Part shown: positions 18,085 through 50,996 of the stretch, one piece after another
How positions within the stretch are numbered: position 1 is the first letter of the stretch
How the letters are laid out: the number at the start of each line of letters is the position of its first letter
Source of the DNA: an uncultured Candidatus Actinomarina sp.
GTDB taxonomy: Bacteria > Actinomycetota > Acidimicrobiia > Actinomarinales > Actinomarinaceae
Direction: 5' to 3'
Assembly: GCA_902510055.1 (NCBI GenBank)
Contig: CABWZY010000005.1
Location: 1-57,863 of the forward strand
DNA length: 57,863 nt
The notes under the pieces: model-generated
The model's database searches: none
Seen by the model: the letters and a program-made list of their open reading frames with translations, nothing else
What the model was told of the DNA's origin: nothing
Translations under genes and position numbers: made by a program

Positions 18085-18656
18085 TGGAAATTTTATTAGC
18101 TACTAAAAATAAGAATAAGTTTATAGAGTTAAAAAATATTTTTGATCAATCAAACTCTGAACATGAGATTCTCTTTTATCCAGATTTAATTGAAGTAGAA
18201 GAAGATAAAGAAACTATTTTGGATAATGCAAAGAAGAAAGCAATTGAGGTATTCAACCAGTATGAAAAACCTGTTATTGCTGATGATTCTGGTTTATTTG
18301 TTGATTCTTTAAATGGCCATCCTGGAGTTAAATCAGCACGTTATGCAGGAGATGAAGCTAATGACGAAGATAATATTCAAAAGGTATTAAATGAAATGGC
18401 AAATGAAGAAAATAGAACAGCTTCTTTTAAAACTGTATTGTTTTTCTACGACGGAAAAAATGAATTAACAACAGAAGGAATTTTGGATGGACAAATTACA
18501 TTTGAGAGGAGAGGGGATAATGGATTTGGATATGATCCAATATTTGAATATGAAGAAAGAACCCTTGCAGAACTTTCATTAAATGAAAAAACAGAGATAA
18601 GTCATAGAAATATTGCATGCACTAAGATGGTTGAGTTGTTAAATGAAAAAATATAA
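18084..18656 (+). CDS. rdgB: dITP/XTP pyrophosphatase (RdgB/HAM1)
   Basis: ADDSGL.VD.L.G.PGVKSARY, GFGYDPIF, ISHR; follows rph. Confidence 0.95.
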   Translation: MEILLATKNKNKFIELKNIFDQSNSEHEILFYPDLIEVEEDKETILDNAKKKAIEVFNQYEKPVIADDSGLFVDSLNGHPGVKSARYAGDEANDEDNIQKVLNEMANEENRTASFKTVLFFYDGKNELTTEGILDGQITFERRGDNGFGYDPIFEYEERTLAELSLNEKTEISHRNIACTKMVELLNEKI

Positions 18657-19323
18657 AAATCTATTAGTAATCTTTTTGTGCTTATTTTTTTCTTCATGTC
18701 AGGCTGAATGGATTATGGATCTTGAAATAAACGAGGATGAGTCAGGAAAGTACTCTATTTCTATTTTACTAGATCAAGAAGCACAGATATTCGCCATAGA
18801 AACTGGTCAGACTGAAATAGGAGGTCTGGAATCAATTGTTGAATCTTTGCCTGAAGGTTTTGGCTCAACTGTTTATCAAAAAGATAAAATGTTTGGAATA
18901 ATGATTCGTAATTCATTCAATAGTATTGAAGAGTTTGAACAACAACTTGATATTTTGTTAAGCGGTGAAAATACTGCATTGTTACTCTTGCCTCTCCAGG
19001 AAATCAAACTCGAGAAAGATGAAAAAGAATTTAAGGTATATGGCGAATTTTCTGCATTACTTAATGGTGAGAATATCACACCAGAAGCAGCTGAAAATTT
19101 ATATTCAGGAAAATTAATGGTAAAAGCACCAGGCAGGATAACAAAACCAAAATTAGATGAAATAAACAATAATACAATTATTTTTACTCATGCAGGATTA
19201 TTAGAGCAGTCTTTCGAAGTCCAATCTACAACATCAAAAATAAATATTACACGTATATTGATTTTCAGTATTTTAGCTATAGCAATATATTTTTTTGGTA
19301 GACAAGTAATAAATAATAAGTAG
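18643..19323 (+). CDS. Putative lipoprotein with C-terminal TM (LppM/DUF3153-like)
   Basis: Lipobox FFSSC, ..INEDESG.., C-terminal hydrophobic anchor. Confidence 0.6.
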   Translation: MKKYKNLLVIFLCLFFSSCQAEWIMDLEINEDESGKYSISILLDQEAQIFAIETGQTEIGGLESIVESLPEGFGSTVYQKDKMFGIMIRNSFNSIEEFEQQLDILLSGENTALLLLPLQEIKLEKDEKEFKVYGEFSALLNGENITPEAAENLYSGKLMVKAPGRITKPKLDEINNNTIIFTHAGLLEQSFEVQSTTSKINITRILIFSILAIAIYFFGRQVINNK

Positions 19324-19332
19324 TATTAATCA

Positions 19333-19359
19333 ATGATGAACATCATAATTATTATTTAA
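19333..19359 (+). CDS. Poly-Ile leader peptide MMNIIIII
   Basis: ATG ATG AAC ATC ATA ATT ATT ATT TAA, upstream of a terminator and an Ile-biosynthesis gene. Confidence 0.75.
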   Translation: MMNIIIII

Positions 19360-19408
19360 GAACAACGAACTAGTCGTTGTTTCCCTTGCGTTGCAGGGGT
19401 TTTTTTTT
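19360..19408 (+). promoter_or_regulatory. Attenuator: hairpin plus intrinsic terminator
   Basis: aacaacga-actag-tcgttgtt (19361-19381); cccttgc-gtt-gcagggg + T9 (19383-19408), 12 nt before the cimA ATG. Confidence 0.75.
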
Positions 19409-19420
19409 GGAAGAGAGAAA

Positions 19421-20977
19421 ATGAAGATAGATGTATTTGATACAACCCTAAGGGACGGGTTCCAGCAGGAAGGAATTTCACCTTCTGTTAAAGATAAGCT
19501 TGCTATTGCTAAGTTACTTGACGATCTAGGTGTAGATTATATTGAAGGTGGCTGGCCCGGTGCTTCTCCCAAAGAAGAAGAGTTTTTTGATAAAGCAAAG
19601 AAAGAATTAAAGCTTACAAATGCAAAATTAGTTAGTTTCGGTTCTACGAGAAAACTAAATATAAAGGTTGAAGACGACCCCCAAGTTAAAGCTTTAGTTG
19701 ACGCTGGAACAGAATATGTTTGTATTGTTGGTAAATCTTCTAATTTGCATATTACCAAGGCTATAGAAACTGATGTAGAAGAAGCAATCAAGATGGCAAC
19801 AGAAACTATTGAATATTTAAGATCAAATGGTAAGAAGGTATTTTTTGATGCTGAACATTTCTTTGATGGATATAAAGAGAATTCAGAGGTAAGTTATAAA
19901 ATCCTTGATGCAGTAATTGATGAGGGCGTTGATTGTTTTATTTTTTGTGATACCAATGGTGGAACCCTTCCACATGAGGTAACTGAGATATTAGGGGAGA
20001 TAACAAAAAAATATCATAAGCAGAAATTTGGTGTGCATTTTCAAAATGATAACGGATGCGCTGTACCAAATTCAATGGCTGCTGTGAATCTAGGAGTAGA
20101 TCATGTCCAAGGAACTATGAATGGATATGGTGAGAGAACTGGCAATGCTGATTTATGTACTTTGCTTCCAAACTTAACTTTGAAAATGGAACATGATACC
20201 GTTCCTTTGGATTCTCTTGAAAAATTAACACCGATTGCAAATCATATTGCAGAACTAGTAAATGTAGCTATTGATTCAAGACATCCTTATGTTGGGTCAT
20301 CAGCATTTACACATAAAGCTGGCCTACATGCTTCAGGTATGGCGAAAGATAGTTCACTTTATGAACATATCGATTCAAGTAAAGTTGGGAACTTTACAAG
20401 GACAACAGTTTCTGAGCTAGCAGGAAGAGCTAGCGTTATAACAAAAGCAAAAGAATTCAATATTGAACTTTCAAATGAAGATGCAAAAAAATTAATAGAA
20501 GAAGTACAGAATCTTGAACATCAAGGTTTCCAATTTGAAGCTGCTGATGGCTCTTTATTTTTATTAATGAATAAGATAAAAGGTTCAAATCCGGATTATT
20601 TTGATTTTGAAAGCTTTAGAGTATTTTCTGAAAGAAGAAATTCTGAGAATGTTGTTTCAGAAGCTGTTTGCAAGATTAACGTCAACGATCAAAGATATGT
20701 CACTACGGGTGAAGGAGTTGGCCCTGTTGATGCATTAAGTAAAGCTTTAGTAAGTGCCCTTCGTAATGACTATCCAGACATAGAAGTTGTTAAGCTAATA
20801 GACTACAAAGTTAGAATCATTGACTCAACTGATGGAACAGAAGCTACGACAAGAGTGTTAGTTGAGTTTACAGATGGAAAAAGAAAGTGGAATACTGTAG
20901 GAGTACACCAAAATATTATTAATGCATCTTGGAATGCTCTTTGTGACGGTTTCAATTTCTATTTTATGTCTTCTTAA
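19421..20977 (+). CDS. cimA: Citramalate synthase (CimA, LeuA-like DRE-TIM family)
   Basis: DTTLRDG.Q.EGIS, YIEGGWPG, FFDAEHFFDGYK, CDTNGG, NGYGERTGNA, IDYKVRI. ATG at 19421 preferred over TTG at 19391. Confidence 0.9.
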   Translation: MKIDVFDTTLRDGFQQEGISPSVKDKLAIAKLLDDLGVDYIEGGWPGASPKEEEFFDKAKKELKLTNAKLVSFGSTRKLNIKVEDDPQVKALVDAGTEYVCIVGKSSNLHITKAIETDVEEAIKMATETIEYLRSNGKKVFFDAEHFFDGYKENSEVSYKILDAVIDEGVDCFIFCDTNGGTLPHEVTEILGEITKKYHKQKFGVHFQNDNGCAVPNSMAAVNLGVDHVQGTMNGYGERTGNADLCTLLPNLTLKMEHDTVPLDSLEKLTPIANHIAELVNVAIDSRHPYVGSSAFTHKAGLHASGMAKDSSLYEHIDSSKVGNFTRTTVSELAGRASVITKAKEFNIELSNEDAKKLIEEVQNLEHQGFQFEAADGSLFLLMNKIKGSNPDYFDFESFRVFSERRNSENVVSEAVCKINVNDQRYVTTGEGVGPVDALSKALVSALRNDYPDIEVVKLIDYKVRIIDSTDGTEATTRVLVEFTDGKRKWNTVGVHQNIINASWNALCDGFNFYFMSS

Positions 20978-49625: not shown

Positions 49626-50996
49626 ATGAAATTAAATAAAGATACTAGTTATTTAATAGTTATATTTTCTTCAATCATATTAATTTTTCTTGATGCTTAT
49701 GAAATATTTTCTATACCAATTTCATGGGTAGGTATGAGTTTGTTATTAGCCTTGTCCTTATTTGAATTTGAAAATCTTTTTACTAAAAATACAAAAGATA
49801 TTTTAATTATCGGGTTGTGTATTGTTTTAATTCCCCAAATATTTTATTTAGTATTTTTTGAATCAACCAGTTCTGATCTGATTTATATTTCCTTAAGGAT
49901 TTTTAATTTTATATCATTTTTTTTAGTATTATTTTTTACTCTTTATTATTTTAAAAATGAAAAATTAGACTTATTTTTTAAATATACAAAATACATAATC
50001 TATTTTTTTTCAATAGCAACTATATATATATACTTAGCACAAATATTTGACCTATATGAACCATTAAGAAATAGGTCAAATACAAATATGTTTCGTGAAT
50101 CTGATCAGTCTATATTCTGGTTATCTGAACCACACAGAGCTATGGGAACTTTCAGAGAACCTGTTTTCTTAGTTACTTTTTTCTTTCCAATTATTCTTTT
50201 ATATTTGTATTACACAAAAAGAAAAACTTTACTTCTTCCCATTTTCTCTGGTATAGCAATGGGCCTTACAAGAAGTAATTATATGAAGTTATTTTGTATT
50301 ATCTTTTTAGTCTTTTTATTAATTCAATATTTTCTTAATAGAAAAATAAAATTTGAATTTCTTATTTTTTTTGGTTTGATTATTGTTTTTTCTACTTTTG
50401 GTGTATTTGAATGTAATTTAAACCCTCAAAGCAATGAATGTTTGGAATATCAAGAGGATGTTGAGAATATGAATAGTTCTGGAGAAATAAGAATTGATTC
50501 AAATATAGACGAACCAGTTGTCGAACTAGGAAATGATAGGATCAACGTTGTTAAATATTTTTTAACATCAATCAAATTTATAAACCCTGAAAGCTTTAGC
50601 AATGTTAATTCAGATTTTCAGTCTTATTCTTCTCTAAGGGTTAATGAGGAGATGTATTTCTCTAACAGAACTTTACCCAAGTATTTACTGCAAAGATACA
50701 GTACAGAAAACTTTGGAACAGGAAATTATTCTCTAGTCAAATATAAAATGAATGTACAAAACTTGTTTGTATTTTACACTCAAGCCTTTGGAATTATCTT
50801 CCCTTTATTCTTATTTCTATTTATCTTTCATTTTCTTTATACAAAAAAAATTAATTTGAAGACTATATTTTTACTTCTTGTAATTTTATTTTTCTTTGTT
50901 AGTCCTATTGAAGAAGTTAATTCATACTACGGTTTAATTATTGGTATCACCTATAATTTTCTTTTTAAAGATAGAATTACATATGAACAAATATAA
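49626..50996 (+). CDS. Wzy/O-antigen ligase-like polytopic membrane protein
   Basis: Multiple TMs, RAMGTFREP, LTRS, large external loop; adjacent to a flippase. Confidence 0.7.
   Translation: MKLNKDTSYLIVIFSSIILIFLDAYEIFSIPISWVGMSLLLALSLFEFENLFTKNTKDILIIGLCIVLIPQIFYLVFFESTSSDLIYISLRIFNFISFFLVLFFTLYYFKNEKLDLFFKYTKYIIYFFSIATIYIYLAQIFDLYEPLRNRSNTNMFRESDQSIFWLSEPHRAMGTFREPVFLVTFFFPIILLYLYYTKRKTLLLPIFSGIAMGLTRSNYMKLFCIIFLVFLLIQYFLNRKIKFEFLIFFGLIIVFSTFGVFECNLNPQSNECLEYQEDVENMNSSGEIRIDSNIDEPVVELGNDRINVVKYFLTSIKFINPESFSNVNSDFQSYSSLRVNEEMYFSNRTLPKYLLQRYSTENFGTGNYSLVKYKMNVQNLFVFYTQAFGIIFPLFLFLFIFHFLYTKKINLKTIFLLLVILFFFVSPIEEVNSYYGLIIGITYNFLFKDRITYEQI

Follow-up and report, generated by a model that had tools for sequence, protein, structure and literature searches.

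The gene cimA occupies positions 19421-20977 on the forward strand of a 57,863-nucleotide (nt) stretch of contig CABWZY010000005.1 from an uncultured Candidatus Actinomarina sp. (hereafter the window, meaning the whole stretch that was analyzed), and is preceded by a short leader with the anatomy of a candidate isoleucine (Ile)-responsive transcription attenuator of which cimA would be the regulated gene. The predicted product, comprising 518 amino acids (aa), was assigned as a citramalate synthase by the model TIGR00977 (637.8 bits, cut-off 450), and it fell below the cut-off of all isopropylmalate synthase (leuA) models. Further upstream lie genes for aconitase, pdxH, RNase PH (rph) and rdgB, followed by an open reading frame (ORF) of 226 aa (18643-19323, forward strand) with a hydrophobic C-terminus and no match in NCBIfam, whose last codons hold the -35-like (TAGACA) and -10-like (TAGTAT) hexamers of the leader. 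The TAGACA box encodes, in genus-mates, a conserved C-terminal ...(V/G)RQ... of this ORF.

The leader, all on the forward strand, runs from TAGACA over 16 nt to TAGTAT, then after 6 nt to a short ORF (sORF) encoding MMNIIIII*, a first hairpin (H1), a terminator stem-loop (T) with a tract of nine U (U9) and, 12 nt beyond the end of that tract, the cimA ATG (19421). The -35-like hexamer (19299-19304) lies inside the 3' end of the 226-aa ORF, was recovered by a consensus scan and is invariant in 24 of 24 distinct sequences from the genus, and the TAG of the -10-like hexamer (19321-19326) is the stop codon of the same ORF. The sORF (19333-19359) reads ATG ATG AAC ATC ATA ATT ATT ATT TAA; five of its eight codons form an uninterrupted Ile run (19342-19356), presumably the sensing codons, in which all three Ile codons are used. 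Initiation at the second ATG (19336) would yield MNIIIII*, and a Shine-Dalgarno sequence is absent upstream of the sORF. H1 (19360-19382) starts 1 nt past the sORF stop codon and has 8 base pairs (bp), AACAACGA/ACTAG/TCGTTGTT at 19361-19381 with the loop ACTAG, to which the predicted fold adds a closing G19360-U19382 pair. T (19383-19399; CCCTTGC/GTT/GCAGGGG) has a 7-bp GC-rich stem and a GTT loop, and is directly followed by the U9 tract (19400-19408), which counts nine T in all 24 distinct genus sequences and three to eight in GC-rich relatives. The distance from the sORF ATG to the end of the U-tract is 76 nt, and from promoter to gene about 120 nt. This layout had been proposed in an initial annotation of the DNA, and the positions given there for the promoter, sORF, H1, T, T9 and cimA start all match the sequence.

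Both the promoter-like site (9 of 12 positions matching) and the terminator were recovered independently by the consensus scan. Two terminator-like sites occurred in the 1-kb region compared to 0.3 expected from shuffled sequences, and four promoter-like sites compared to an expected 4.4; as the latter count is not above expectation, the promoter call rests on conservation and not on the scan. The folding energy of a 101-nt region was -24.7 kcal/mol (z = -3.07), with one of 200 shuffles being as stable. A TAnnAT or CATACT hexamer ends 6-12 nt upstream of the sORF start in the collected elements (6-7 nt in nearly all genus sequences), and GC-rich relatives carry TTGACN where the window has TAGACA. 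The promoter spacing would fit a transcript starting at or next to the ATG of the sORF.

An Ile-run sORF is by itself not rare in an AT-rich genome: the 893,122 bp of this one (31.5% GC) hold, counting both strands, 14 sORFs of at most 20 codons with an in-frame run of at least four Ile, only two of which have a run of five. A genome-wide scan for residue-enriched sORFs followed by a terminator returned only four loci, the cimA leader among them. What argues against chance is conservation across both genus and class. A search with the CimA protein identified 28 orthologous loci in genus-mates (75-98% identity), giving 29 loci and 24 distinct sequences with the window included, and the whole arrangement was found upstream of cimA in 29 of 29: TAGACA, 16-17 nt, TAnnAT, 6-9 nt, a sORF of eight codons (seven in L002), H1, T, U9, and 4-14 nt to the ATG. 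The encoded peptides are MKKIIIII, MINFIIII, MQKIIIIV, MKKIIIIV, MMNIIIIN, MINIKIIF, and MMNIIIII or MNIIIII, and the stretch from the Ile run through the U-tract is nearly invariant over the 24 distinct sequences. A different gene lies upstream in L003-L010 and L012, and the element is retained there.

Outside the genus, an Ile-run sORF was found at the same place in 35 of the best 80 loci, the named records belonging to Ca. Actinomarina and other Acidimicrobiia. The concern voiced in the initial annotation, that the run might be no more than chance ATT repeats, is thus answered by its retention in 29/29 genus loci and in 35 of the best 80 named ones. Among 20 further genomes from the class, five passed the criterion set for the element and L039 shows the same hairpins with just two Ile codons; the element is also present in the class member G230. 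The GC-rich versions shown have a TTGACN-17-CATACT promoter of their own, ending 7-12 nt upstream of the start codon, and leaders such as MSASIIIIA, MFDTTPTIIIN and MTTVIIIT, behind which lie a strong H1 and, after a short spacer, a terminator. The gene itself is common, with 152 of 201 sampled Actinomycetota genomes scoring above the model cut-off (a tally that, as the only one here, includes the unpublished genome G196). Upstream regions of cimA from other Actinomycetota classes contained an Ile-run sORF in just two of 78 cases, MSDSIIIGPLP* and MAVLACAGIIIRPLP*, and in 43 of 80 sampled regions cimA lies within 40 nt of the preceding open frame. The structure downstream of these two leaders is different, as the last sORF codons pair with a downstream complement: the sORFs of L120 (G123) and L126 (G211), both outside the Acidimicrobiia, end in ...IIIGPLP* and ...IIIRPLP*, and their last codons CCGCTCCCG can pair with CGGGAGCGG further downstream. 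These two appear to be Ile leaders of a more classical kind that arose on cimA independently.

The anatomy was compared over 66 collected elements (62 distinct), 57 of which could be parsed; the remaining five (L137, L139, L141, L147 and L172) have interrupted U-runs, with L137 and L172 still showing both hairpins. The terminal Ile run was kept in the 57 parsed elements, with a length of three codons in 24, four in 16, five in 15 and two in 2, and it is separated from the stop codon by no residue in 19, one in 34 and two in 4. H1 (6-14 bp) starts between -3 and +2 nt from the end of the stop codon, the spacer between H1 and T measures 0-7 nt, T has 6-10 bp and the U-run 3-9 nt. The 584 leader residues include 231 Ile, 8 Leu and 11 Val, so that only Ile is enriched. 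Codon usage within the runs varies synonymously among ATC, ATT and ATA, as the initial annotation had anticipated for a leader of this type: over the 62 distinct elements, the GC-rich ones use 89 ATC and 34 ATT and the AT-rich ones 82 ATT, 22 ATA and 3 ATC. The leader stop is TAG in 33 of 38 GC-rich elements, and its G is often where pairing in H1 begins; in GC-rich genomes, most genes usually end in TGA.

The two stems have likewise been kept through sequence change, in agreement with the covariation that the same annotation had suggested looking for. H1 is present in 57/57 parsed elements with 34 distinct 5' arms, and its median z-score is -4.9 against mononucleotide shuffles, for a segment defined by its own fold. 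For 26 GC-rich relatives, a consensus fold recovered T with compensatory change at six of eight consensus pairs. The genus alignment had 94.3% of cells paired overall (H1 89.8%, T 100%) compared to 39-54% in slid controls, and the apical H1 pair switches within the genus between AU (8), UA (8) and UG (5). The arms of T (19383-19399 in the window, and L134-L196) are conserved in sequence across the class, with A-CCC-T-(C/T)... on the 5' side and ...(G/A)(G/A)GGG-T on the 3' side. They resemble an anti-Shine-Dalgarno/Shine-Dalgarno pair, which may reflect plain common ancestry or a function.

These comparisons bear directly on the simplest competing explanation, i.e. that T merely terminates the upstream pdxH-rph-rdgB-ORF226 operon and that the Ile-run sORF is a by-product of AT-rich sequence. 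The 226-aa ORF does stop at 19323 with no other terminator ahead of T, and 14 Ile-run sORFs exist in the genome. Yet the element is retained behind the different upstream gene of L003-L010 and L012, it is kept in GC-rich genomes with its own promoter, where ATC/ATT runs are not compositional, and Ile is enriched while Leu and Val are not. Nor does a promoter fit between T and cimA, a point that also disposes of a separate cimA promoter, which the initial annotation had listed as a possible objection: the gap is 12 nt in the window and 4-14 nt in genus-mates. As there is no promoter room past T, cimA would be expressed only via read-through of T. An operon terminator with an incidental sORF is thus very improbable, and appears already contradicted by the comparative data.

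The metabolic context would readily account for an Ile-only sensor. A separate true leuA (TIGR00973, 628 bits) is present in the genome as part of an ilvBNC-leuAB operon, and this, together with the enrichment of only Ile in the leaders, is in line with the earlier assignment of the gene as cimA rather than leuA. Threonine dehydratase (TIGR01124) was found in none of 41 genus genomes, five of which are at least 90% complete, and a control search had hits in 14 of 14 reference genomes. In this genus, Ile synthesis is thus probably entered through the citramalate route alone; routes to 2-oxobutanoate other than threonine dehydratase do exist.

We consider that the element is, with a probability of roughly 0.7, an Ile-specific, ribosome-mediated transcription attenuator on cimA, of the leaderless actinobacterial type. 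That it acts at T in response to Ile appears highly probable from its anatomy and conservation, and it would very likely switch cimA on when Ile runs short. Given such an attenuator, the identification of folded H1 as the ON (read-through) state is more tentative, at somewhat under even odds. From what is known of leader-peptide attenuation, ribosome stalling dependent on Ile-transfer RNA (tRNA) is the obvious signal, and we infer leaderless translation, stalling at the Ile codons and folded H1 as the read-through state. The promoter spacing would place the transcription start at the sORF ATG or no more than a few nt away, and a ribosome would load on the 5' end of the RNA and read the eight codons. 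With ample charged tRNA-Ile, the ribosome would reach the stop codon abutting H1 and have to unzip H1, upon which T would fold, RNA polymerase would halt at U9 and cimA would not be transcribed. With charged tRNA-Ile scarce, the ribosome would stall in the Ile run with its front edge mostly short of H1, opening at most its lowest pairs, and H1 would stay folded and allow more polymerases to read through T into cimA.

The geometry of the element can accommodate this sequence of events. The unwinding edge of the ribosome lies about 8-10 nt past the first base of the A-site codon. With such an edge, a stall on the first Ile codons is predicted to leave H1 intact, a stall on the last Ile codon to open its lowest 1-5 pairs, and a ribosome at the stop codon to open most of its 5' arm. 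The stop codon adjoins H1 in all 57 parsed variants.

A conventional antiterminator was searched for by folding nine orthologues with a ribosome set at every codon, and the outcome is the first of several points that weigh against the attenuator as just described. T stayed in the lowest-energy fold at all ribosome positions in 9/9 orthologues, with a probability of at least 0.95 at any position in the seven for which this value was given. With the 3' arm of T yet to be transcribed, no consistent partner for the 5' arm was found in any of the states considered (free RNA, ribosome at the first Ile codon, ribosome at the stop) across 33 sequences. As modelled, a classical antiterminator excluding T is thus missing from the cimA leader. 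H1 and T share no competing bases in the window, and base-pairing does not explain how T would be weakened. An extension of H1 by 2-5 nt into the 5' arm of T (about -2 kcal/mol) was seen in 13 of 18 genus sequences tested and was impossible in the window and the four others, and in GC-rich relatives H1 and T are set 0-7 nt apart. If folded H1 is the ON state, untranslated RNA would read through too, the opposite of what a start-codon mutant of Corynebacterium glutamicum ilvBNC would lead one to expect, as it lost 80% of expression according to the part of that study covered here (PMC11857589). T might also double as the terminator of the upstream operon. An Rfam scan of 18500-20000 (E up to 10) gave no family at its gathering score, the best hits reaching 14-20 bits compared to the 36-102 needed. 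Finally, the RNA runs that matched are represented by small-share marine contigs, silent on transcript starts, ends and levels: one contig of 781 nt, from a run whose RNA status is guessed, spans 18797-19577, and the others cover cimA-coding pieces only (90-95% likeness).

Two pairings put forward in the initial annotation were also followed and did not hold up. The proposed antiterminator between caacg in H1 and cgttg at the apex of T needs GTT in the T loop, and only 13 of the 24 distinct genus sequences can form all five of its pairs; it shows no covariation, is always outcompeted by H1 and is without equivalent among the GC-rich relatives. Conservation is also lacking for the atgat-gaac-atcat fold over the start codon, which the MKK... 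leaders do not have.

Four further candidates were considered and set aside. The H1 extension was rejected as a general antiterminator, since it yields about -2 kcal/mol in 13/18 genus sequences and does not form in the window. In untranslated RNA, the sORF could pair with the 5' arm of T in a few GC-rich cases (at most 9 nt, L149), but not consistently over the 33 sequences. A ribosome covering T directly would be too far away, the last Ile codon lying 29-41 nt from the foot of T. As for frameshifting or stop-codon read-through across T, the sequences inspected by eye do have T open in the 0 and +1 frames, but their Ile runs offer no slippery site and the frame in which cimA follows is not conserved, the open frame upstream of cimA ranging from 519 to 544 codons.

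If classical attenuation logic were applied to the same parts, the roles would be reversed: H1 would be a 1:2 protector, and a ribosome stalled on the last Ile codons would open it, with the freed 3' arm disturbing T, possibly by pairing weakly with the 3' arm of the latter (UUGU:GCAA(G)). After a ribosome has terminated and left, H1 would refold and T form. In textbook trp and his attenuators, too, the regulatory codons immediately precede the first arm, and the geometry predicts that a ribosome with the last Ile codon in its A site opens 1-5 bp of H1. H1 and T are moreover quasi-repeats (GCAACG...CGTTGT and CCCTTGC...GCAAGGG), so that partial cross-pairings exist. Such logic would also give termination without translation, as described for C. 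glutamicum in the part of the account covered (PMC11857589). Nevertheless, no 2:3 or 2:4 pairing of useful strength was found: blocking the 5' arm of H1 leaves T as the lowest-energy fold with a probability of at least 0.95, its 5' arm stays unpaired until its 3' arm is made, and the complementarity is missing in GC-rich relatives. We therefore regard this reversed logic as unlikely.

Equally doubtful, but able to do without competing base-pairing, is a steric or tether-length switch, which would leave folded H1 as the read-through state. T would have to close its lowest pairs far inside the polymerase, in the RNA exit channel, for which slack RNA is needed upstream. A ribosome stalled in the Ile run would sit at the foot of folded H1 and, as H1 joins its own ends 0-7 nt from T, this bulky ribosome would be docked beside the foot of T, which then could not complete, and the polymerase would read through. 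One to five codons further on, at the stop, the ribosome would unzip H1 and pay out about 15-25 nt of single strand, and with the slack gained T would complete and transcription end. If true, this would explain the adjacency of the stop codon to H1 and of H1 to T, the lack of an antiterminator and the fact that a ribosome nearer in sequence ceases to protect.

The last alternative moves the control away from transcription, with T a constant, leaky terminator and the stalled ribosome altering translation or stability of the cimA mRNA, either through protection of the 5' end or, as has been suggested for the polycysteine sORFs of mycobacteria, by unmasking the ribosome-binding site (RBS). The U-tract of the window can indeed pair with the purine-rich GGAAGAGAGAAAA just 5' of the cimA ATG, and the mycobacterial Cys sORFs are said to be leaderless and to act on translation. 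The latter reportedly use a single-codon run as a ribosome-based sensor of the pathway of that amino acid, and reportedly operate through RBS unmasking without an intrinsic terminator. The cimA leader differs in that a canonical hairpin and U9 stand between sORF and gene, and a hairpin with U9 immediately 5' of a gene is the signature of transcriptional control. The U-tract:RBS pairing is not conserved either, being absent in most genus-mates, where the gap between U9 and ATG is 4-7 nt. The features looked for in a translational attenuator are thus not those found at cimA, and post-transcriptional action, which would also leave H1 without a role, appears distinctly improbable.

A second attenuator-like element in the same genome offers a comparison for the attenuator reading with folded H1 as the ON state. 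It lies on the minus strand of contig C4 at about 50865-50990 (L211:6866-6967), before ilvB-ilvN-ilvC-leuA-leuB, and was picked by both scans, i.e. that for terminators upstream of long ORFs and that for residue-enriched sORFs before terminators. A -10 hexamer TATAGT is followed after 8 nt by a mixed Ile/Leu/Val leader, MKRTQILITLLVLVLM*, whose TAG stop contributes its G to a first hairpin; the terminator stem CCTCCC/GGGAGG with U9 comes next, and an ORF of 570 aa begins 10 nt further on. Folding gave three alternative hairpins, with antiterminator and terminator overlapping by 2 nt. The equivalent of H1 forms with the ribosome at codons 12-14, taking two bases from the foot of the terminator and trimming it from 7 to 5 bp, and is lost from codon 15 on, whereas in untranslated RNA a third hairpin holds its 5' arm. 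In these models it thus behaves as an antiterminator, which agrees with folded H1 being the ON state at cimA. The shared ilvBNC-leuAB operon has a leader of Ile, Leu and Val, and the Ile-dedicated cimA has an Ile-only leader.

Several leaders of related type have been described, all considered here from parts of the published accounts. Transcription of C. glutamicum ilvBNC starts 1 nt from the leader start codon, mutations of leader codons and of the start codon alter regulation, and terminator and antiterminator overlap (PMC11857589). That leader (IlvL, MTIIRLVVVTARRLP) resembles the one at cimA in being actinobacterial, short and rich in residues of the pathway, with an intrinsic terminator before the first gene; it lacks an RBS and has a small hairpin overlap (PMC11857589). 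A similar start next to the leader ATG is predicted for cimA from the promoter spacing. C. glutamicum has, however, three hairpins (anti-antiterminator, antiterminator and terminator) in a 292-nt leader region and senses Ile, Val and Leu, whereas the cimA leader has two hairpins without base competition in the window, uses only Ile codons, spans about 76 nt and targets cimA. Three hairpins of that kind were found in the ilvB leader of the same genome, which looks like the true counterpart of the C. glutamicum ilvBNC attenuator. Seliverstov et al. (2005) predicted short ORFs with cognate-codon runs beside poly-U terminators at actinobacterial ilvB, and noted that many Actinobacteria lack components of the classical attenuator (PMC1262725). 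The part of their work covered here deals with ilvB, leuA (LEU element), trp, cys and ileS, reports no conserved structures for other pathways, and mentions neither cimA nor Acidimicrobiia (PMC1262725). RNA-seq of Streptomyces lividans identified the leaderless leader peptides leuL, trpL, ilvL, alaL, metL and thrL, i.e. sORFs of 12-29 codons followed by hairpins, several with a U-rich stretch, before amino-acid genes (PMC8079986). None of these is Ile-only or precedes cimA, IlvL having one Ile codon, and "cimA" and "citramalate" have no occurrences in that text (PMC8079986).

The initial annotation knew of no description of this arrangement. This still holds for cimA itself, as no published description of an attenuator on the gene was found in open-access full texts, a listing in supplementary tables being possible, and the covered part of a survey of premature terminators does not mention the element (PMC2965389). 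It does not hold for leaderless attenuators as such, which are documented for ilvBNC (PMC11857589) and in S. lividans (PMC8079986). The cimA element is best described, by its sequence, as a putative Ile-specific member of the leaderless actinobacterial attenuator family with a stripped two-hairpin design.

The enterobacterial trp, his, thr and ilv attenuators share with this design a leader of cognate codons, a rho-independent terminator and the use of ribosome position as the signal. They have a Shine-Dalgarno-led leader, at least four segments and a clear 2:3 antiterminator that excludes the terminator, and such a 2:3 antiterminator was looked for in the cimA leader and not found. With at least 57 natural variants of strict geometry and no antiterminator, the element sharpens the question of how a stalled ribosome defeats a terminator that is neither covered nor out-paired, and its 76 nt from ATG to the end of the U-tract offer a very small system for this actinobacterial attenuator puzzle. 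It would also give a genome of about 1 Mb, among the smallest of free-living bacteria, a means of control that takes up about 120 nt and requires no regulatory protein. For annotation, its presence would mark TIGR00977-type genes across the Acidimicrobiia as citramalate synthases of the Ile pathway and not as leucine enzymes.

Three further leader-like sites were noted in the genome. On the minus strand of contig C7 (1236-1329), a sORF rich in Trp, MLKTNNWNWWNLLT*, precedes a hairpin with U7 and looks like a trp-type leader; taken as a model for the design seen at cimA, it too yielded no predicted antiterminator, and no gene start was seen in the 200 nt beyond it. Structured leaders with a hairpin and U-run abutting an ATG were observed on the minus strands of contig C8 (5781-5787) and contig C3 (23636-23643), upstream of ORFs of 198 and 176 aa, respectively, and these may be riboswitch-like or attenuator-like.

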